NCBI GenBank assembly: GCA_038741355.1
Contig: JAVYLC010000054.1
Location: 1 to 9,977, forward strand
Source: Nitrososphaerota archaeon
GTDB taxonomy: Archaea > Thermoproteota > Nitrososphaeria_A > Caldarchaeales > Calditenuaceae
Direction: 5' to 3'
Length of the DNA: 9,977 bases
Below the pieces are notes generated by a model. It was not told the origin of the DNA, did no database searches, and saw only the letters and a program-made list of their open reading frames with translations. Made by a program: the position numbers and the translations under genes. Positions 3 to 9,842 of this stretch are shown in pieces (the first letter of the stretch is position 1; every line of letters begins with the position of its first letter).

Positions 3-899
3 GTGAGGATCACGGGCCGGCTCCGCACGCTTGAGCCGCTGAGGGTTGGGATGGGGAGGGTTGATACTCCGGACGTTACGACGGACCTGCCAGTCATAAG
101 AGTTAAGGAGCTGAGGAGTGGGATTGAAGTCCCCTACATTCCAGGCTCATCACTTAAGGGGGTCTTCAGGAGCGCGGCTGAGTCTATAGCTAAGTCTGAG
201 GGGGTTAAGCCGGATCCCTGTTCTGGGCTGTCTAAGAACAACTGCATGGCGGCGAGGAGGGTTGAGGGGCAGACTCTGGAAGACTTTGTGAAAACACTAC
301 TCAGGAAGAATGCGATCCGAGACGCTCTTAAGAGCTTCGCGGATAACGCCTGCCTCCTCTGTAAGGTCTTCGGGGCTCCGACCTATAGGAGTAAGGTCGT
401 CTTCGAGGACGCCTACCCGGTGGACGAGGGAGGCAAATTGACAAGCGTCCCCACAGGGATAAAGATGGGGATTGCGATCGATAGGACAACAGGAGCCGTG
501 GCCACGGGGGCCCTCTACAGGGTCGAGTATGTCGAGCCCGGCGCCCTATTCAGCTTCTCCTTCAACTCCACCAATCTCCCCAACTACGCTCTCGGCCTCT
601 TAGCCGAGGTCTTCACACTCCTTGACGACGGTTTGATCCGAGTGGGCGGGTTCAAGTCTAGGGGCTTCGGAAGGGTTAGAGCAGATGATGTGAGCCTAAT
701 GGTTAGGCACTACTCACCGATCTCCGGGGAGGCGGGCAGGCTCGACACGCTGGGAGACCCCGGCGATAGGAGTGTCTCTCTGACGCCAAGCGATGTGAGG
801 GACGAGTGGGTCATATTTAGGGGCCCCGAGCTCGAGGCGCTCTTGAAAGAGCTTAGAAGGGTGTGGAAGGATTATGCAGCCTCAGCGAGTAAGCGTTAA
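3..899 (+). CDS. cas7: Type III CRISPR RAMP protein, Cas7 group (Csm3/Cmr4-like backbone subunit), 298 aa
   Basis: GTG start at nt 3, so the true start could lie off-window, but MRITGRLRTLEPLRVGMG looks like a native Csm3 N-terminus. Motifs seen: D28 in TTDLPVIRV (position of the Csm3 catalytic Asp), YIPGSSLKGVFRS, CLLCKVFGAP, IDRTTGAV..GALYRVEYVEPGA, and the G-rich loop VGGFKSRGFGRV. The 3' end overlaps the next gene by 26 nt. Confidence 0.85.
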   Translation: MRITGRLRTLEPLRVGMGRVDTPDVTTDLPVIRVKELRSGIEVPYIPGSSLKGVFRSAAESIAKSEGVKPDPCSGLSKNNCMAARRVEGQTLEDFVKTLLRKNAIRDALKSFADNACLLCKVFGAPTYRSKVVFEDAYPVDEGGKLTSVPTGIKMGIAIDRTTGAVATGALYRVEYVEPGALFSFSFNSTNLPNYALGLLAEVFTLLDDGLIRVGGFKSRGFGRVRADDVSLMVRHYSPISGEAGRLDTLGDPGDRSVSLTPSDVRDEWVIFRGPELEALLKELRRVWKDYAASASKR

Positions 900-1948: not shown

Positions 1949-4555
1949 GTGACCGGGGAGGATAGGAGGTTCTGGGAGGAGCTCATAAAAGTAGATCTCA
2001 GAAGATTCCTCCAAACCAATCTCAGCATCGCGAGGGGGGCTGGTGGCGGCGAGCTGGCCGGGGCTGAGAAACTCGAACTAGTCGCCGACCTGATAACATT
2101 CTTCTTCAAGGCGCCTCTAACCTTTGAGCCTCTCCTAAGCCTAGCCCCGTCTCCCCCGAGTCTTTACCTAGCTCTAAGACTCAATAAGCAATTTCTAAAA
2201 GAATTCAATAGGGCTCCGGTGGATTATCTCCCCACACTTATCAGAATGGTGGATGTAGGGTCATTTATTGATGAAGGGCTGAGGGGGAAGATTACTAAGG
2301 CTTGGCTCGTCTTTCCAGCTGACACTAGACCGGGGGCAAACACGTCGAGCCTAGTAGCACATCTTTTAACCACACCGGCGATAGCTTGGTCGCTGGCGTA
2401 CAACTACAACTCCACTAAAGACCGCAGGAACCTAGCTATTCAGAGAATATCATCCCAGCTACACGATATAGCTAAGCCGATAGAGCCCAGAATTCATTAC
2501 AGGGTTGAGGTCTTTGGAGAGCTGGTGGATTCGCTGCTGAGCAGTATATTGGATGAGAGGGAGGTGGATGAGGTTAAGGAGGCTGTTGAACAGCATCACA
2601 GGGATGAGAAGAGTCCTGTACGTAGAGCGGACCAGATTTCGGCGGCCATCGACAGGATAAGGGATGTCATAGAGGTGCTGATTGGTAATGAGTTCAGAAC
2701 CCCCCAGTTTATGGAAATTGCATCGAGGTATCAGAGGGATGTGTTCGAGCTGGCATATGGAGGGGGGAGGGATGCGTGGGACTTCTGGGAAACCGTGGAG
2801 GAGAGGATGCCTGGAAAAATTAGGGAGTTGTCGGAGAAGTTTGTTGAGAGGCTAGGTAGCGTGTCTGAGGTCAGGCATAGTTTGAGACCTTATAGCGATC
2901 TCAGCTACTTCCTCGTGGATATCGGCGGGGTCCAGCAGTTTGTCTATCGCTCGCCTAAGCTCAGCGCCGTGGCCGCTGCCAGCCTCTTCATAGACTATCT
3001 AACCTCCACAATCCTCCCAGTATTCATTCAATCTTGGTTTGAGGAGGAAGAGGGTGTGTGGGTTCCCCTAGAGTCGTTCCTGCTGACTTCCGGGGCGAAT
3101 GTTGCGGGCATCCTTCCCGGTAGGATAGGGGCGGACTCTCTGTTGAAGGTGGTTGAGGAGCTGTGTAGACGGCTGAAGCCGCTTGAGGTGGATTTCAAGG
3201 TAGCCGTCGCCCAATTTTATGAACACTACCCGCACATGTGGGACGAGGTGAATAAGGATATGGCTCTGGCGAAGATTTCTCCTAGGCCCGGCTCAAGCAT
3301 TACTGACGTTTCAGGAGGCATAGAGCCCAGCAGAATATGCACACTTTGTTACAGGGAGGAAGCGAGTATAGGCGAGCTCTGCGCCACTTGCAGCAGACTG
3401 GTCGAGTTTGGTAGGAATCTCGGTTTTAGGACAAAGTGGATGAATGGATTCATACTTGGGCAGAAGAAGATAGTTCCAAGAGATGTGTGGGGCGTGGATT
3501 ATGGCGATGAAAAAGATCCGGATAGCATTGCATTGAATACTATCGAGCTGATATCCGGGATGGAGCCCCCGTTCACGGGCAGGGAGCTTAACGTCGCGGT
3601 GATTAAGGGCGACGGGAATAGGATGGGGGAGTTCTTCTCCAAGTCTATATCCATTTCAGACGCCATTGAGAGGAGCTTCCGCCTAGACCATTCCCTCAAA
3701 ACAGCTTATGGGAGGGCTCTCCAAGCCATACTCTCAGCCGATAGTGCCGATGGTATGCGTGAGAGAGACGCGTGCAGGATATGGCTCGGAACCCTCTACA
3801 TGGGTGGAGACGACTTTCTAATACTATGCCCATCATGGCTGTCGCTCCCCTTCTCATACATTCTTGCGAAGGAGTTTGAATCGGGGATGGGTGGGAAGTG
3901 TACTTTATCTATCGGAATAGCTGTTGTCCCTCCGGAACACAGCGTCTGGCACGCTATAAGGGCGGCTGACGAGTTGATGGAGGTTGCGAAAGGCGAGATA
4001 GGCCGTAAGGGCCCCGCGTCGGCCATATCGTTTGACGCGGCTGAGCAGGGATTGCTATCCGGTGAGACTGTCTTGAGGAGGCTGGAGGTGCAGAGGTCAA
4101 ACGGCCTCACCGCCCGTCCAATCCCTGTTGAAAGCGGGTCTGGATTCAGCTTGAAGCACCTGCTATCCTTCTTCGGGTATAGCTTAGACTACCACCCGGC
4201 TGACATTATGAGGCATGCATACAGCCACAGGCCGTCGAAGGATGGCTCGGGAAACCCTACCATTTCGCGGCTAAGGCTTGTCAGGAAGGCTGTGACAGCT
4301 GCTGTCGAGTGCGCCACGTCCATGCTTGGTAGGTGGGATGAGGGTAACCGGGATACCGCACTAAAGATAGCCACCCTCTACTGTTATAGAGAGTCGAACG
4401 ACGATAGCAGGGAGGAGGCATTGAGAAGAGTCTTCAGGGATGTTGGTGAGCTCTGCCGGCGGCAATTAACTGACCAGGCCGCCGAAAGCTTGAGGGCTGC
4501 ACCACTACTGGATCTCGACGCCGCGGCCAAGATCCTTGGGGGTGGAGGGATATGA
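1949..4555 (+). CDS. cas10: Cas10 (Csm1-like large subunit of the type III effector), 868 aa; HD nuclease motifs plus zinc finger plus GGDD cyclase palm
   Basis: HD region resembles Csm1: SLVAH138LL, QLH172D173IAKP (nt 2462-2467), H183, EQH216H217RD, RRADQISAAIDR. Palm1 start is FLVDIGGVQQFVY. Zinc finger is C464-x2-C467-x10-C478-x2-C481 (nt 3338-3391). Palm2 is VAVIKGD555GNRMG (nt 3611) and YMGGDD622FLIL (GGDD at nt 3803-3814). The C-terminal ~150 aa are helical. The first canonical start in frame after the TGA at 1877 is GTG 1949, which sits inside a GGGAGGTGA Shine-Dalgarno-like string, so the exact start is uncertain. The stop overlaps the next start (ATGA at 4552-4555). Confidence 0.93.
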   Translation: MTGEDRRFWEELIKVDLRRFLQTNLSIARGAGGGELAGAEKLELVADLITFFFKAPLTFEPLLSLAPSPPSLYLALRLNKQFLKEFNRAPVDYLPTLIRMVDVGSFIDEGLRGKITKAWLVFPADTRPGANTSSLVAHLLTTPAIAWSLAYNYNSTKDRRNLAIQRISSQLHDIAKPIEPRIHYRVEVFGELVDSLLSSILDEREVDEVKEAVEQHHRDEKSPVRRADQISAAIDRIRDVIEVLIGNEFRTPQFMEIASRYQRDVFELAYGGGRDAWDFWETVEERMPGKIRELSEKFVERLGSVSEVRHSLRPYSDLSYFLVDIGGVQQFVYRSPKLSAVAAASLFIDYLTSTILPVFIQSWFEEEEGVWVPLESFLLTSGANVAGILPGRIGADSLLKVVEELCRRLKPLEVDFKVAVAQFYEHYPHMWDEVNKDMALAKISPRPGSSITDVSGGIEPSRICTLCYREEASIGELCATCSRLVEFGRNLGFRTKWMNGFILGQKKIVPRDVWGVDYGDEKDPDSIALNTIELISGMEPPFTGRELNVAVIKGDGNRMGEFFSKSISISDAIERSFRLDHSLKTAYGRALQAILSADSADGMRERDACRIWLGTLYMGGDDFLILCPSWLSLPFSYILAKEFESGMGGKCTLSIGIAVVPPEHSVWHAIRAADELMEVAKGEIGRKGPASAISFDAAEQGLLSGETVLRRLEVQRSNGLTARPIPVESGSGFSLKHLLSFFGYSLDYHPADIMRHAYSHRPSKDGSGNPTISRLRLVRKAVTAAVECATSMLGRWDEGNRDTALKIATLYCYRESNDDSREEALRRVFRDVGELCRRQLTDQAAESLRAAPLLDLDAAAKILGGGGI

Positions 4556-6227: not shown

Positions 6228-7154
6228 ATGCACTTAAACCCCCTTACTTTTAGGACCATAGGCCGGCTAGCCTTCACGTGCGAGACAGGTATATACGTGG
6301 GGGCTGGCGGGGAGGGGTTGTACAAGACCCCCCTGAAGATCGGCGATATGCTGCTCATACCAGCCACCACTTGGAAGGGAGTCTTCCGCGCACTCTCCGA
6401 GAGGATCATTAAGTCGATGAGGCTTGACGGCGTACAGTCCACTCTGAGGGAGCTGTATTACGAGGATGGCGGCGAGTATTTTAGGATCGATGGTGAGGTT
6501 TTGAAGGAGCATGTCAACGCGCTCCGGGAATATCTAGCCCGGCGCTACGGCGGGGTTATGAGTGCCCTGCGCCAGCTAGCCGCCGGGAATGGCGAGTTGG
6601 TCAGAGAGATTGAAGGCCTCCGCGACGGGGAAAGTATGTGCAAATACCTGTTTGGGAGGGGTAGAACCCTGCTCCAGAGATACCTAGGCATGCTCTACCC
6701 CATAACATCCCTCTACGGCTCCCAGGGTGTGGCTGGCAAGGTCAGGTTTCTAGACACTCTCGCTAAGGCTTACTCATATTTTAAGCCGGGTGTTGGCATT
6801 GATAGGAAAACAATGACAGCTGCGGAGGGCAGGCTATACATTATCGAGACCCTGATCCCCCAAGATGGCTCGATAACTCTACGGATACTAGTCGACAATG
6901 TTGAGAGGGGCACGCTAGAGGCGAGGGTCTTGGCTGCAACGTTGAGGTATGTCGAGTCTGAGGGCCTGGAGGTGGGAGGGTCGAGGAGCAGGGGCATAGG
7001 CCACCTCGAACTCCAGGCAGACAAATCGTACTTCAGGGTCCTTAACCTCTCCGAGAAAACAGACCTCCCAACCATGCTCAAACAGTTAGCATCGCCGGCA
7101 AGCTGGAAAACTTATAGCCTCAAACAATTCATAAGAGAGGTTCTTGCCGGATAG
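6228..7154 (+). CDS. Type III CRISPR RAMP protein, Cas7 group with large helical insertion (Csm5/Cmr6-like), 308 aa
   Basis: ATG lies 1 nt after the preceding stop. Motifs seen: IYVGAGGEG, LLIPATTWKGVFRALSE, CKYLFG, SLYGSQGVAGKVRFLD, GVGIDRKTMTAAEGRLYIIETL, and the G-rich loop VGGSRSRGIGHLEL. A ~90-aa helical insertion follows the TxWKG motif. There is no Asp at the Csm3 catalytic position. Confidence 0.72.
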   Translation: MHLNPLTFRTIGRLAFTCETGIYVGAGGEGLYKTPLKIGDMLLIPATTWKGVFRALSERIIKSMRLDGVQSTLRELYYEDGGEYFRIDGEVLKEHVNALREYLARRYGGVMSALRQLAAGNGELVREIEGLRDGESMCKYLFGRGRTLLQRYLGMLYPITSLYGSQGVAGKVRFLDTLAKAYSYFKPGVGIDRKTMTAAEGRLYIIETLIPQDGSITLRILVDNVERGTLEARVLAATLRYVESEGLEVGGSRSRGIGHLELQADKSYFRVLNLSEKTDLPTMLKQLASPASWKTYSLKQFIREVLAG

Positions 7155-7157
7155 TGC

Positions 7158-8327
7158 ATGAAGCTAGTGAAGCTAAATACAAGGGATCTGTTTAACAACT
7201 CAATAATAGAACTACTCGAAGAGTATAGGCTTGAAGATACTAGAGCAAGATTAGAGGATTGGCTTCGCAAAATGGATATTATGTCTGACTCGCTAACCTA
7301 TATTATGTTTCGCCAAGCGATTAGGCTATGTAATTCTATTGTAACCCAAATCGAGAATAATGCGCCTTTAAAAGAAAAGGTTGAGAATATTCTCAGCACA
7401 GTTTCAGCAGAATTCAGTAGGAGTTTATCAGAGCTCTTAGCTAGGACTTATATTTCTCAGTTAGCGCAACGGCTACATACTTTCGGTGTGGGACGGGGTG
7501 AAGAGCAATTAAAACACTTATTGAGCTTGAAATCGGTTCTACAAAATACGCTAATAGAAGGGTACGCAAGGGAATATCGCAAACAAAATATGGGGAGTGC
7601 TGACTACCTAATTGGAAAATTAGACACACTAAAAGAGGATGAGACTGAATGGACGCTTTTCATGTTAAAGTCAATGGATAGTCATCATATAGAGACATTG
7701 GATACTCTCTTATACCTGTTTACGTCCTATCGATTCGATAAAACAAAATTCTTTGAGCAATACTCTAAAGCTAAAGGTGAGGAGGCTAAAGAAAAGGTTG
7801 TTGAAGAATTGGTTGAGGACGCCCGTAAAAGACAGGCTATTGAAGATGAAAAAATAGAGTGTGATCGTAGTGATTTAACGGGACTAATGAAAGAGACTAT
7901 AGACATGGCTTTTTCGTTGTATAGTCACAATCCAGCTACTGAGTTAAGTAATAAGTGGGGGAGACTCTGTGAAATTATGCTCTATGCTATTTTGTTTAAA
8001 AATGATGTACTGTTTAGTTTTAATGCTCTCCTTAATCCGAATGTAGTTGGGCAAGAAGGTATGATTAACGAGTTTGACTCTATAGTCTTGTCGGAGGATG
8101 GGGGATTAGTTTTTATCGAGGTTACAAATAGAAAAGAGTTAGGTGATAAACTCGGGAAATGCTTGACTCTCCTACAGAGGCTGCCTGAGATTGGAATAGT
8201 GGGGCTGGATGAGGGAGATGTAAAAGTCTGGATCATTCACTCTATGTATAATAAACATGATCGTCCTCCCCCCTCAAATGTGAGTATGATGTCGTTCCCC
8301 GAGTTAGCAAAGTTGTGTAGTTGCTAA
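7158..8327 (+). CDS. Uncharacterised type III-associated protein, 389 aa: helical N-terminal region (~aa 1-260) plus C-terminal PD-(D/E)xK-like (restriction-endonuclease fold) signature with a non-canonical E-V-T triad
   Basis: A long clean ORF with ATG 3 nt after the csm5-like stop, AT-rich and Lys-rich unlike the upstream genes. The C-terminus reads as helix WGRLCE272IMLYAILF, strand NEFD307SIVLSEDGG, strand LVFIE321VT323NRK326, helix ELGDKLGKCLTLLQRL, strand VKVWIIHS. NEFDSIVL..LVFIEVTNR resembles the GEIDLI..LVFVEVKTR pattern of YraN/Hjc-type nucleases. I saw no DxTHG-type CARF motif, no R-x4-6-H HEPN motif and no transmembrane segments. That it is a CDS is well supported; the function is an inference. 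Confidence 0.6.
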   Translation: MKLVKLNTRDLFNNSIIELLEEYRLEDTRARLEDWLRKMDIMSDSLTYIMFRQAIRLCNSIVTQIENNAPLKEKVENILSTVSAEFSRSLSELLARTYISQLAQRLHTFGVGRGEEQLKHLLSLKSVLQNTLIEGYAREYRKQNMGSADYLIGKLDTLKEDETEWTLFMLKSMDSHHIETLDTLLYLFTSYRFDKTKFFEQYSKAKGEEAKEKVVEELVEDARKRQAIEDEKIECDRSDLTGLMKETIDMAFSLYSHNPATELSNKWGRLCEIMLYAILFKNDVLFSFNALLNPNVVGQEGMINEFDSIVLSEDGGLVFIEVTNRKELGDKLGKCLTLLQRLPEIGIVGLDEGDVKVWIIHSMYNKHDRPPPSNVSMMSFPELAKLCSC

Positions 8328-8478
8328 ATGGGTTGGGTAGGAGAACTCAGGGAGTGCAGCTAAATAATGCGGCTCCTATATAGGCCCAGTCGTCGCCGTA
8401 GCTTCTCAAACGTCAATTTAGCTATCTTATATGTGGGGTTTGTGAATATTCTTCTGAGAGTGATTTGGGTTAGACCTG

Positions 8479-8498
8479 AAAATTTTGCCACTGGTTTT
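8479..8498. terminator. Weak candidate bidirectional oligo-T termination region between the convergent genes
   Basis: AAAATTTT (8479-8486) gives a T4 run on both strands, and GGTTTTGG (8493-8500) adds another T4 on the plus strand. Archaeal terminators are oligo-T tracts, but these are short and no better signal is visible in 8328-8516. Confidence 0.15.
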
Positions 8499-8516
8499 GG
8501 GACGGTTGTGTGTCTG

Positions 8517-9842
8517 CTATGAGTGTGGTTTACTTAACCACGACCTGATTTCGTTTATTTTTTCTTGGTTGTATTTTACGTATTTTTTGCCATTTTCCTC
8601 GATCTCCCTTATTGTATCTTTGGAGAGTCCTGCATGTGCGAAAAAGTTTCTCTTGATGTCGGATGGTCTCTCCCCCTTAATTTTTGAAATTTCGCTCTCG
8701 AGGATCAGTGAGTTTACTTGCATGTCGATGAGCTCGTATATATCTTTAAAAACTAAGAGTTTTTCGATGTCGACGCCCTTCTCGTGGATGGGGATGTTTA
8801 GTGTCTTGACTTTTCGCGCGATGAAAATGTAGAGGGTGAGTGATATGAATAGGTTGGCGAGTGACCTGAAGTCTATTTCGGTGACTTTGACGCGCCCCTC
8901 TGATACGGTTGGTTTGAGTATTTCTTTGAAGAGGCTGGAGAGTCTTTTCATCACTGCTGTGACCTTCTCCAGGTCAAGCTCGATTAATTCTTTGTTTAGG
9001 ATGGCTAAAGGGGCGTTGTATTTTACCGCGTTGAAGGCTAGGAGTGCTTCGCATAATAGTTTCTTTAACTCCCCCCTATCTCCGAAAAGGTCTGCTACCA
9101 TCTTTTTCTCCTCGGGGTCGAGCTTGATGTAGGCTGGTATGTTGGCGGCTTTGTCGAGTTCTGTATGATTGTAGGGGAAGCTCATGAATGCTTTTACATT
9201 GTAGTCGATTAGGAATATTTGGTAACTGTCCTTTTTGATTTCTCTGCTTACTGGCTCTGCTACGGCGTATTTGACCTGCGTTAACTTGTAGTTTTTCAGC
9301 CCTCCCAATATTTTGTCCAATACTGTGATTGCCCTTGCCGCGTCAAATAGTGGCGGGATGTAGGCGTTGTGGCCTGTCGATACATCTAGTATTAGTTTGA
9401 CCTTTTTCTGGTCGTCTTCTATCAGGTTTACGTCTTCTAGCATTTTGAAGAAGACGGTTGCGGCTATGGATTGGGGCGTTGCCTCGAATTGATAGTATTT
9501 CCCGCCCAACCTGTAGTTGCCTATTGCTGGGATGGGAGAGACACCTATCTTTACATCGCCTTCCCCATCAGTCTCCAGCTCCTCCATTATTTCCTGGGTG
9601 AAAGACTGTAGGTCTAAGGTGCCTTTCTCGCCCACTGGAGGTTCTCTGATGCTTAGTGGGATTAGAAATTCGACTCTTGCCTCCGCCCCCTTGGTTATAA
9701 AGTGTCTAGCTAGCGCTAGGGAGGAGAATTTTGCCACCTTTCTCGTCTCATTCTCAACCACGTATTGGACGCGCTCATAATTTAGGTTACCCACTATCTG
9801 ATAGATAAGAGCTACTGATTCTTGACTTGTGGAACCGCTCAC
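8517..9842 (-). CDS. csx1: Csx1-family CARF-HEPN ribonuclease (cyclic-oligoadenylate-activated type III ancillary effector), 441 aa
   Basis: The N-terminal CARF-like domain has LILDVSTGHNAYIPP (nt 9386-9366), a variant of the Csx1 DxTHGxN signature. The C-terminal HEPN motif is R398-N-F-F-A-H403-A-G (nt 8651-8634), the canonical Csx1/Csm6 R-N-x-x-A-H. GTG start at 9842, with no in-frame ATG near the N-terminus. The gene is convergent with the effector operon. Confidence 0.88.
   Translation of the reverse strand: MSGSTSQESVALIYQIVGNLNYERVQYVVENETRKVAKFSSLALARHFITKGAEARVEFLIPLSIREPPVGEKGTLDLQSFTQEIMEELETDGEGDVKIGVSPIPAIGNYRLGGKYYQFEATPQSIAATVFFKMLEDVNLIEDDQKKVKLILDVSTGHNAYIPPLFDAARAITVLDKILGGLKNYKLTQVKYAVAEPVSREIKKDSYQIFLIDYNVKAFMSFPYNHTELDKAANIPAYIKLDPEEKKMVADLFGDRGELKKLLCEALLAFNAVKYNAPLAILNKELIELDLEKVTAVMKRLSSLFKEILKPTVSEGRVKVTEIDFRSLANLFISLTLYIFIARKVKTLNIPIHEKGVDIEKLLVFKDIYELIDMQVNSLILESEISKIKGERPSDIKRNFFAHAGLSKDTIREIEENGKKYVKYNQEKINEIRSWLSKPHS

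Follow-up and report, generated by a model that had tools for sequence, protein, structure and literature searches.

ORF389, an open reading frame (ORF) of 389 codons, is the final gene of a CRISPR effector operon in a 9,977-nucleotide contig (hereafter the window) from a metagenome-assembled genome (MAG) of a Nitrososphaerota archaeon of the order Caldarchaeales. The window covers the greater part of a type III-D-like effector operon, and the ORF389 protein combines a predicted all-helical N-terminal domain with a C-terminal domain that probably adopts a PD-(D/E)xK nuclease fold. We favour the reading, at a probability of roughly 45%, that ORF389 is a lineage-specific type III accessory nuclease that has an active variant of the PD-(D/E)xK site and is controlled via the effector complex by a helical domain distinct from CARF. 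Catalysis, the role of the Lys residues, docking on the complex and toxicity are the components of this reading that we infer. The existence of the gene, its position in the operon, the distribution of its family, the fold class, the conserved residues, the selection pattern and the frameshifts are supported by the data themselves.

ORF389 is a genuine gene and not a chance ORF, because a 27%-identical homolog occupies the same operon slot in a distant lineage and because the ratio of nonsynonymous to synonymous substitution rates (dN/dS) in its C-terminal core is 0.16. The protein is a 100% match to the NCBI hypothetical protein QXM16_08610 [Nitrososphaerota archaeon]. A first-pass annotation had placed the gene at positions 7158-8327, 3 nucleotides past the last RAMP gene, and both the coordinates and the junction are correct. 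This junction leaves no space for a promoter, and therefore ORF389 is likely to be co-transcribed with the RAMP genes and probably is also translationally coupled to them. Scans of the window for Rfam families, CRISPR repeats, promoters and terminators returned nothing relevant.

There are 12 loci with upstream sequence in which linkage can be scored, namely the window, nine close relatives, and the loci L006 and L011, which together represent two independent lineages. ORF389 or its homolog is located directly 3' of the last RAMP gene in all 12. Each of the 10 close loci has the same 3-nucleotide junction, and its place is taken in L006 by an 11-nucleotide overlap between the homolog and the last RAMP gene; both arrangements uphold the earlier assignment of the gene to the operon. 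The order of genes in L006 (Cas11-like, RAMP, RAMP, RAMP-like, Cas10, RAMP, Csx10-like, RAMP, homolog) is syntenic with that in the window. Effector subunits of the window and L006 are 44-60% identical, whereas ORF389 and the homologous protein P0003 are 27% identical. Thus, the slot has been kept over a large divergence during which the gene evolved about twice as fast as the complex. Enrichment of homologs beside type III loci had been proposed as a check on the first-pass annotation, and both of the independent lineages that were scored are positive.

The downstream, convergently oriented CARF effector differs between these lineages. Loci of the window type have Csx1 (CARF-HEPN) there, and L006 and L011 have a CARF-PIN gene. 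ORF389 therefore follows the effector operon and not csx1, and the earlier suggestion that it may regulate csx1 is weakened by a distant lineage that pairs the same gene with CARF-PIN instead. The HD motif of Cas10 (SQLHDIAKP plus downstream His and Asp residues) and its cyclase GGDD motif are kept in both the window and L006 lineages.

In a third lineage, both available contigs begin inside the homolog and carry housekeeping genes downstream. They are two independent contigs from Candidatus Terraquivivens MAGs, of 37.6 kb and 108 kb, and they start at the same point, near residue 281, such that the homolog occupies positions 1-319 of both L013 and L014. Their shared start points to an interrupted assembly, with strain variation either in the N-terminal portion further upstream or in the CRISPR-Cas locus as the cause.

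Structural evidence for the C-terminal domain comes from an AlphaFold2 model of residues 236-389, built with an alignment of six diverged sequences. The model has a predicted local distance difference test score (pLDDT) of 69.3 and a predicted template modelling score (pTM) of 0.63. Its topology is alpha-alpha-beta-beta-beta-alpha-beta-beta-alpha, which holds the alpha-beta-beta-beta-alpha-beta core of restriction endonucleases. The first-pass annotation had read the same order of elements from the sequence of the C-terminus, and the modelled fold and the structural matches agree with it.

Nearly all of the top 50 Foldseek matches to this model in the PDB are PD-(D/E)xK nucleases, and the leading match is Can2 (8q3z, E-value 1.9e-3). 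Other type III nucleases on the list are Card1 (6xl1), Cdn1 (8z4i) and Can1 (6sce), and restriction or nicking enzymes are represented by EcoO109I, Nt.BspD6I, Bse634I, McrC and FokI. Defence nucleases include Upx (9wuf, template modelling (TM) score 0.53), Shedu (8ti9) and LmuA (9nxx). The remaining matches comprise the R2 retrotransposon endonuclease, NucS/EndoMS, Vsr, viral cap-snatching endonucleases and the Cas4-family protein ACE1. Matches in BFVD are likewise PD-(D/E)xK, DUF2726 and Mrr-like proteins. Across the PDB and BFVD, probabilities reach 1.00, E-values range from 3e-4 to 1e-1 and TM scores from 0.4 to 0.6. Although the individual scores are modest, the matches are unanimous, which makes the assignment of residues 236-389 to the PD-(D/E)xK fold class reasonably safe, and on the strength of the model we consider this class probable.

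The only signal from Pfam is a sub-threshold match of one of five family members to NERD (PF08378) on NVVGQEGMINEFDSIVLSEDGGLVFIEVTNRK, the EFD...EVT segment, with an E-value of 0.19. At 12.7 bits, this match falls short of the gathering score of 22.1, and hence ORF389 is not assigned to NERD. The 'EFD ... hhFhEV' pattern that ORF389 shares with NERD and minimal PD-(D/E)xK families is a common core signature.

Conservation of the candidate active site was read from an alignment of five sequences, which includes a full-length Calditenuaceae protein of 397 amino acids, reconstructed by joining the N-terminus from L006 to the C-terminus from L011. Positions invariant in all five are V284, L285, F286, S287, N289, A290, L292, N293, P294, E305, F306, D307, D314, L317, F319, V322, T323, K331, K334, V357, W358 and S362, and E272 is conserved wherever the alignment covers its region. 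The acidic residues expected of a PD-(D/E)xK site are thus found at the canonical secondary-structure positions in the form of D307, E/D321 and E272. All of the residue positions given by the first-pass annotation (E272; D307 at 8076-8078; E321-V-T323 at 8118-8126; K326) are accurate, and its remark that Thr replaces the canonical Lys holds without exception in three lineages. There are active members of the superfamily in which this Lys has moved to a neighbouring helix, for example the helix after beta3 in viral cap-snatching endonucleases, and enzymes of this kind are among the Foldseek matches to the C-terminal domain noted above. Since K331 and K334, to which the first-pass annotation had not drawn attention, are invariant and position 326 is K, R or K in the three lineages, a migrated Lys is a viable option, and we infer from the alignment that its role may have been relocated to K331 and K334, possibly with K326.

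For the N-terminal domain there is no comparable assignment. A full-length AlphaFold2 model made from a two-sequence alignment has a pLDDT of 42 and is unusable, and Foldseek searches with it gave only noise (E-values above 2, to long helices of the ESCRT-III/VIPP1 type), such that no fold was assigned to this domain. There is no match to CARF, SAVED or HEPN in Pfam, NCBIfam or PADLOC at an E-value of 1 or less. The domain has an isoelectric point (pI) of 5.6 and no transmembrane segment, and a membrane protein was rejected for ORF389 as a whole (maximum Kyte-Doolittle hydropathy of 1.39 over 19 residues). A charged stretch that had been singled out earlier, KAKGEEAKEKVVEELVEDARKRQAIEDEK, is located at residues 204-232. 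The best motif shared between lineages in the N-terminal domain is a hydrophobic helix, LD(T/Q)(L/V)LYLF(T/S)(S/N)Y(R/N)F at residues 181-193, and this helix looks structural.

The first-pass annotation had stated that CARF, SAVED and HEPN domains are absent, and the profile searches bear this out. Its further statement that there is no R-x4-6-H motif is literally wrong, because RGEEQLKH, an R-x6-H, is present at residues 113-120 (window positions 7494-7517). The motif is not conserved, being missing from the relatives P0002 (85% identity) and P0003 (27% identity), and together with the lack of a HEPN profile match this led us to reject a HEPN identity.

Database searches place ORF389 in a very small family. 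Full-length ORF389 has no match at an E-value of 1 or less, except noise, in Pfam, NCBIfam, PADLOC or PHROGs, and there is no match among PDB sequences with either single-sequence or profile queries. Weak profile matches to ABCD3, eIF5 and PRK11616, seen with the full protein, the C-terminal domain alone or alignments, were dismissed as noise. The PADLOC library does detect the neighbouring Csx1 (E-value 5e-37) as well as further CARF proteins encoded in these loci, which makes the missing CARF or SAVED match meaningful. These results support the earlier claim that ORF389 belongs to no named accessory family.

When 5.8 billion proteins were searched through a word index, the sole matches were ORF389 itself and one 85%-identical relative (P0002). 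Exhaustive phmmer comparison with 1.84 billion cluster representatives brought two further genuine relatives, P0003 (355 amino acids, 27-29% identity to ORF389, E-value 1.9e-20) and P0006 (a 105-amino acid fragment with about 33% identity). Two giant proteins from the same search (P0004 and P0005) are spurious, because their tandem Ig-like repeats match a KEDETDW-like stretch seven to nine times. A profile of the C-terminal domain gave zero additional relatives in the 5.8-billion-protein set at an E-value of 10 or less. Scans of genome and metagenome contigs and further profile searches recovered only more copies from three lineages of Caldarchaeales. These are the window type, with 10 loci that are 83-100% identical; the Candidatus Calditenuaceae type, represented by L006 and L011; and the Candidatus Terraquivivens type, represented by L012 to L014. 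All carriers are Caldarchaeales from hot-spring-type MAGs. The label of orphan given to ORF389 by the first-pass annotation is therefore nearly true, but not literally so.

Within ORF389, dN/dS is 0.157 over residues 261-335 (window versus L001), indicating purifying selection on the nuclease core. The value for the whole gene is 0.57, the highest in the locus, and that for the tail (residues 336-389) is about 1.2. The N-terminal domain differs between L010 and L003 by 17 nonsynonymous and two synonymous changes, and over most of the remaining 10 kb these two loci differ by only 0-2 nucleotides per 300. By a hand calculation, the 17:2 ratio fits neutrality (binomial P ~0.2) and not the omega of ~0.3 of neighbouring genes (P ~1e-3).

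The gene is also distinct in composition. G+C content is about 57% up to the start of ORF389 and about 39% across the gene (window positions 7155-8327), a step that coincides exactly with its 5' boundary, and its G+C content at third codon positions (GC3) is 0.38, compared with 0.60-0.70 for the effector genes and 0.55 for csx1. The same low-G+C contrast is repeated in L001 (positions 10001-11176), in L006 (8846-9913; GC3 of 0.43 versus 0.50-0.63) and in L012 (1-1000), where the gene is beside housekeeping genes. Low G+C content is thus a persistent property of this gene, too old for a recent, unameliorated acquisition, and not a signal of recent transfer. An origin as viral or plasmid cargo, such as an anti-CRISPR or other mobile-element gene, had been raised by this composition and was rejected: there are no relatives by tblastn among 50,697 phage and 72,556 plasmid records or in IMG/VR, and the operon slot is stable.

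Synonymous divergence of ORF389 from about residue 86 onwards, and of csx1, is approximately twice that of the effector genes, and the first 85 codons of ORF389 are nearly invariant. This pattern in the aligned sequences suggests a recombination boundary inside the gene. The locus also has a top divergence hot spot at window positions 8101-8700, where the window and its relatives show 35-45 differences per 300 nucleotides compared with 5-17 elsewhere. It runs from the tail of ORF389 across the 189 nucleotides between the two convergent genes into the 3' end of csx1, and it may be either a recombination boundary or a fast-evolving region. A separate local difference is present at window positions 301-600, within the first Csx7-type RAMP gene, where loci of the L003 type differ from the others by about 25 positions, including a 24-nucleotide insertion or deletion (indel); the other effector genes are nearly identical.

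ORF389 and its homologs are repeatedly broken at homopolymer tracts. In six of the 10 close loci (L003 to L005 and L007 to L009), the A6 tract at codons 231-233 is an A5 tract, which creates the sequence GAA-AAA-TAG and ends the product after K232. The result is a 232-amino acid ORF for the N-terminal domain and a detached C-terminal ORF, the latter called in L007 as a 142-amino acid frame that starts at M250 in the linker. Intact close copies are found in the window, L001/L002 and L010. Each frameshifted allele carries a single homopolymer change, beyond which the original frame is free of additional stops and indels. The N-terminal domain of the frameshifted L007 allele has three differences from that of the intact L010, compared with 17 for the other frameshifted alleles. 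The A5 frameshift has thus recurred or spread by recombination.

L006 and L011 share 99.975% identity across 12.1 kb, and their only two indels are both within this gene: G7 versus G6 at codon ~71 (L006 position 9053, L011 position 9107) and A8 versus A7 at codon ~352 (L006 position 9896, L011 position 9949). Each of the two homologs is broken, but at different sites. The G7 and A8 tracts are the only homopolymers of at least 7 nucleotides in the whole L006 locus. In total, three different homopolymer tracts break this gene, whereas the eight effector genes on the same contigs are intact. Higher homopolymer density was rejected as the cause of the frameshifts, because csx1 has more runs per kb yet is intact.

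Possible causes of the frameshifts are the recurrent loss of a costly gene, or heterogeneity of the tracts within populations that resembles phase variation. Errors in the assembly consensus are less likely for short-read assemblies. A more elaborate scenario, which we view as improbable, is that ORF389 is a phase-variable (contingency) immune nuclease gene. Its homopolymer tracts, which are A6 at codon 232 and, for the distant lineage, G7 and A7/8, would let archaeal populations toggle a costly accessory nuclease of the type III system between on and off states. The A5 allele would then yield mainly the free 232-amino acid helical domain, and a -1 slip of tRNA-Lys on A-AAA would restore the frame to give a two-product gene like dnaX. 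The stop codon of the A5 allele does abut the tract, and a -1 slip there would recover the original frame. In this scenario the N-terminal domain would be a new type of module, free of any cyclic-nucleotide sensor, that couples the nuclease directly to the complex.

The CARF-PIN gene in the same two loci (L006 10504-12013 and L011 10556-12065, both on the minus strand) is represented by three overlapping ORFs, which match positions 1-130, 124-179 and 252-426 of a single PADLOC CARF_PIN model. This gene is probably frameshifted as well. Both accessory genes of L006 and L011 therefore look disrupted, and the effector genes are intact.

In the favoured reading, ORF389 would be translated from the same transcript as the subunits of the effector complex. 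Its C-terminal domain would be an active metal-dependent nuclease in which E272, D307 and E321 bind metal, Thr323 sits in the canonical place of Lys, and the function of Lys is supplied from the following helix by K331/K334, possibly with K326. The helical N-terminal domain would fill the regulatory place held by CARF in Can2, and would most likely tether the nuclease to the target-bound effector complex, or gate it by that complex, rather than sense a diffusible signal. The host is proposed to pay a cost for the nuclease activity, and this would account for the repeated frameshifted alleles in natural populations. Complex-based control is favoured by the tight and conserved translational coupling of the gene to structural subunits, by its independence of the identity of the CARF effector, by an N-terminal domain without the conservation expected for a small-molecule pocket, and by the precedent of in-operon cluster 37 genes that are predicted to join the complex. 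In our analysis, control by the complex is only slightly preferable to a new second-messenger sensor, given the Can2-like nuclease neighbours of the fold and the intact Cas10 cyclase.

Several observations weigh against the reading of ORF389 as an active, complex-controlled nuclease. The canonical Lys two residues after the beta3 acid is absent, its place being taken by Thr323 in each of the three lineages. With a pI of 5.2 (5.0 for the C-terminal domain), the protein is acidic, which does not suggest strong non-specific binding of nucleic acids. Structural support is moderate, with a pLDDT of 69, a best PDB E-value of ~2e-3, TM scores of 0.4-0.53 and an alignment of six sequences. A neutral-like N-terminal domain and frequent frameshifts equally fit a gene that is being lost. 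The HD and GGDD motifs of Cas10 are intact and CARF effectors are present, leaving no obvious functional gap to fill. Finally, the association with type III systems is seen in just two independent lineages.

Among the alternatives, a stand-alone nuclease activated by a second messenger comes closest, even though we consider it rather unlikely. The N-terminal domain would then be a new sensor, neither CARF nor SAVED, for cyclic tri-, tetra- or hexa-adenylate (cA3, cA4, cA6) or another nucleotide, and would act allosterically as in Can2 and Card1. The nearest structural neighbours of the C-terminal domain are indeed the cyclic oligoadenylate (cOA)-activated proteins Can2, Card1, Cdn1 and Can1, the cyclase GGDD is conserved in both lineages, and cOA-binding folds other than Rossmann folds have been found recently, such as Crn4 (PMC12830947). 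A ring nuclease of the Crn4 type was itself rejected as an identity for ORF389, since Crn4 is small and has an unrelated novel fold. Unlike CARF and SAVED pockets, the N-terminal domain is near-neutral (17 nonsynonymous and 2 synonymous differences) and weakly conserved between lineages, and no sensor-like family or fold is detected. Moreover, the cOA effectors of these loci (Csx1 and CARF-PIN) are in separate convergent units, whereas ORF389 is coupled to structural subunits.

A somewhat less probable alternative is that a dead PD-(D/E)xK fold is reused as a binding or structural module, making the protein an extra, dispensable subunit of the complex or a regulator, such as an adaptor that binds nucleic acid or protein, with no nuclease activity. 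The invariant Thr in three lineages and the acidic character of the protein are compatible with this, as is the precedent of a divergent inactive nuclease domain in Can1 (domain 2; PMC7969007). Against it, E272, D307, E/D321 and two Lys residues of the adjacent helix are kept at 27-34% identity with a core dN/dS of 0.16, which is typical of a retained metal site. Relocation of Lys beyond beta3, as in viral cap-snatching endonucleases, is moreover an active variant of the fold. Of all the explanations, we give the lowest standing to the idea that ORF389 is a decaying remnant, once functional and now being lost in these populations, with no present-day role left for the intact copy in the window. 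Frameshifts in six of 10 close loci and in each assembly of the distant lineage, the locus-highest dN/dS (0.57; ~1.2 in the tail) and the atypically low G+C content would all agree with decay. However, the copies in the window, L001/L002 and L010 are intact, the frameshifted alleles carry one homopolymer change without further decay, the core is under purifying selection, and the slot has been kept while effector subunits diverged to 44-60% identity.

The genes of the window and the features of ORF389 are compiled in the table below.

Table. Coordinates of genes in the window and of features within ORF389 (residue numbers refer to the ORF389 protein)
Feature	Window position	Strand	Remarks
Csx7-type RAMP	3-899	+	effector operon
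RAMP-like protein, 338 amino acids	874-1890	+	effector operon
Cas10; HD (SQLHDIAKP) and cyclase GGDD motifs both conserved	1949-4555	+	
RAMP, 208 amino acids	4552-5178	+	effector operon
Csx10-like protein, 353 amino acids	5165-6226	+	effector operon
Last RAMP, Csx7-like Cas7, 308 amino acids	6228-7154	+	directly upstream of ORF389
Junction: last-RAMP TAG stop (7152-7154), TGC, ORF389 ATG	7152-7160	+	gap of 3 nucleotides
ORF389, complete coding sequence, ATG start, 389 amino acids plus stop	7158-8327	+	final gene of the effector operon
N-terminal domain, residues 1-232	7158-7853	+	all-helical in low-confidence model; no family or fold; soluble, acidic
A6 tract, codons 231-233	7849-7854	+	A5 in 6 of 10 close loci
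Linker helix between domains, residues 233-258 (modelled helix 239-254)	7854-7931	+	
C-terminal domain, putative PD-(D/E)xK fold, residues 259-389	7932-8324	+	AlphaFold2, Foldseek, dN/dS
Predicted helices of C-terminal domain: alpha1 259-281, alpha2 325-345, alpha3 380-388			AlphaFold2
Predicted strands of C-terminal domain: beta1 286-288, beta2 308-311, beta3 317-323, beta4 355-361, beta5 375-378			AlphaFold2
E272 on alpha1, candidate first acidic residue	7971-7973	+	conserved in 27%-identical homolog
VLFSxNAxLNP block, residues 284-294, beta1 and next loop	8007-8039	+	most conserved stretch of the family
D307 in invariant E-F-D, start of beta2	8076-8078	+	'PD' position
E321-V-T323, end of beta3	8118-8126	+	'(D/E)xK' position; E/D/D - V - T in three lineages
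First turns of alpha2: K326 (K/R/K), K331 and K334 (invariant)	8133-8159	+	candidates for relocated Lys
Tail, residues 336-389	8163-8324	+	hypervariable among close alleles except VW(I)(I/V)xS strand (residues 357-362)
csx1, CARF-HEPN with RNFFAH motif	8517-9842	-	convergent; own transcription unit

Other parts of the system lie outside the window or within its Cas10 gene. The window stops short of the CRISPR array that is seen in L001, and there is no copy of the repeat inside it. In L001, a large array of about 58 repeats, with the 25-nucleotide repeat CTTTCAATTCCTTTTAGGATTCAAG, occupies positions 12840-16650 and is followed by cas4, cas2, cas1, csa1, csa3 and cas6. Ahead of its effector operon, the same locus also encodes a second cas6 and a protein of the CARF5/NE0113 family. 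In Cas10, residues 1-137 (window positions 1949-2360) form a conserved extension of about 135 amino acids that is N-terminal to the HD domain and has no family assignment; its motifs LADLITFFFKAPLT and FPADTRPGANT are common to the window and L006.

The closest parallels to ORF389 are Can1 and the DUF1887 proteins Can2, Card1 and Cdn1, which likewise are type III-encoded proteins of ~370-440 amino acids with a regulatory N-terminal domain and a PD-(D/E)xK C-terminal domain. Those proteins bind cA4 through an N-terminal CARF domain with a Rossmann-like fold (PMC7969007, PMC12825302), and Cdn1 is a Can2-family protein with CARF and PD-(D/E)xK domains (PMC12825302). In contrast, the N-terminal domain of ORF389 is predicted to be all-helical and has no CARF match, Thr is present instead of the canonical Lys, and the gene lies within the operon together with structural subunits rather than as a separate accessory gene. 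There is also no Pfam or PADLOC profile match of ORF389 to DUF1887, and no relationship at the sequence level.

Shah et al. (2018; PMC6546367) catalogued genes with restriction-endonuclease domains but no CARF in crenarchaeal type III operons and predicted that they associate with the effector complex. Two groups in that study, clusters 37 and 45, are of the same kind as ORF389, being restriction-endonuclease-like genes without CARF in archaeal type III operons, although they are likened here by description only. Because no relatives beyond Caldarchaeales turned up in the exhaustive search, any tie to these clusters would be at the level of the fold only. To our knowledge, neither cluster has been characterised experimentally.

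Control of a C-terminal PD-(D/E)xK nuclease by a variable N-terminal module, as proposed for ORF389, is also the arrangement in Shedu (SduA), Upx and Lamassu LmuA. Upx, for example, is a dual PD-(D/E)xK defence nuclease (PMC13099982). Unlike ORF389, these are stand-alone defence proteins encoded outside CRISPR operons, and they share no sequence similarity with it. A different parallel is offered by type III-E systems. There, Csx29 (TPR-CHAT) joins a helical N-terminal module to a catalytic domain and works by binding the type III effector, not cOA. This is a mechanistic analogy only, because Csx29 is a protease with a different fold.

Thus, ancillary PD-(D/E)xK nucleases of type III systems are known in the form of Can1, Can2, Card1, Cdn1 and NucC, and restriction-endonuclease-like type III genes without CARF have been catalogued, though not characterised. 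What appears new in ORF389, as far as its sequence reveals, is the lack of a relationship to any described family combined with the lack of every known sensor.

The family is tiny, confined to uncultured hot-spring Caldarchaeales and partly decaying, which limits its general impact. If the variant site, with Thr for Lys and Lys residues on the following helix, is active, then it would add a documented variant to the PD-(D/E)xK superfamily. The repeated homopolymer frameshifts may offer a natural measure of how costly such an effector is to carry, and on/off switching of an immune gene, if true, would be a rare example in archaea. Type III ancillary effectors are known for being switched by cyclic oligoadenylates through CARF or SAVED domains. 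ORF389, which has neither sensor and is kept in the operon while its CARF partner changes, may exemplify another coupling logic, either direct recruitment or gating by the effector complex or a new sensor fold.

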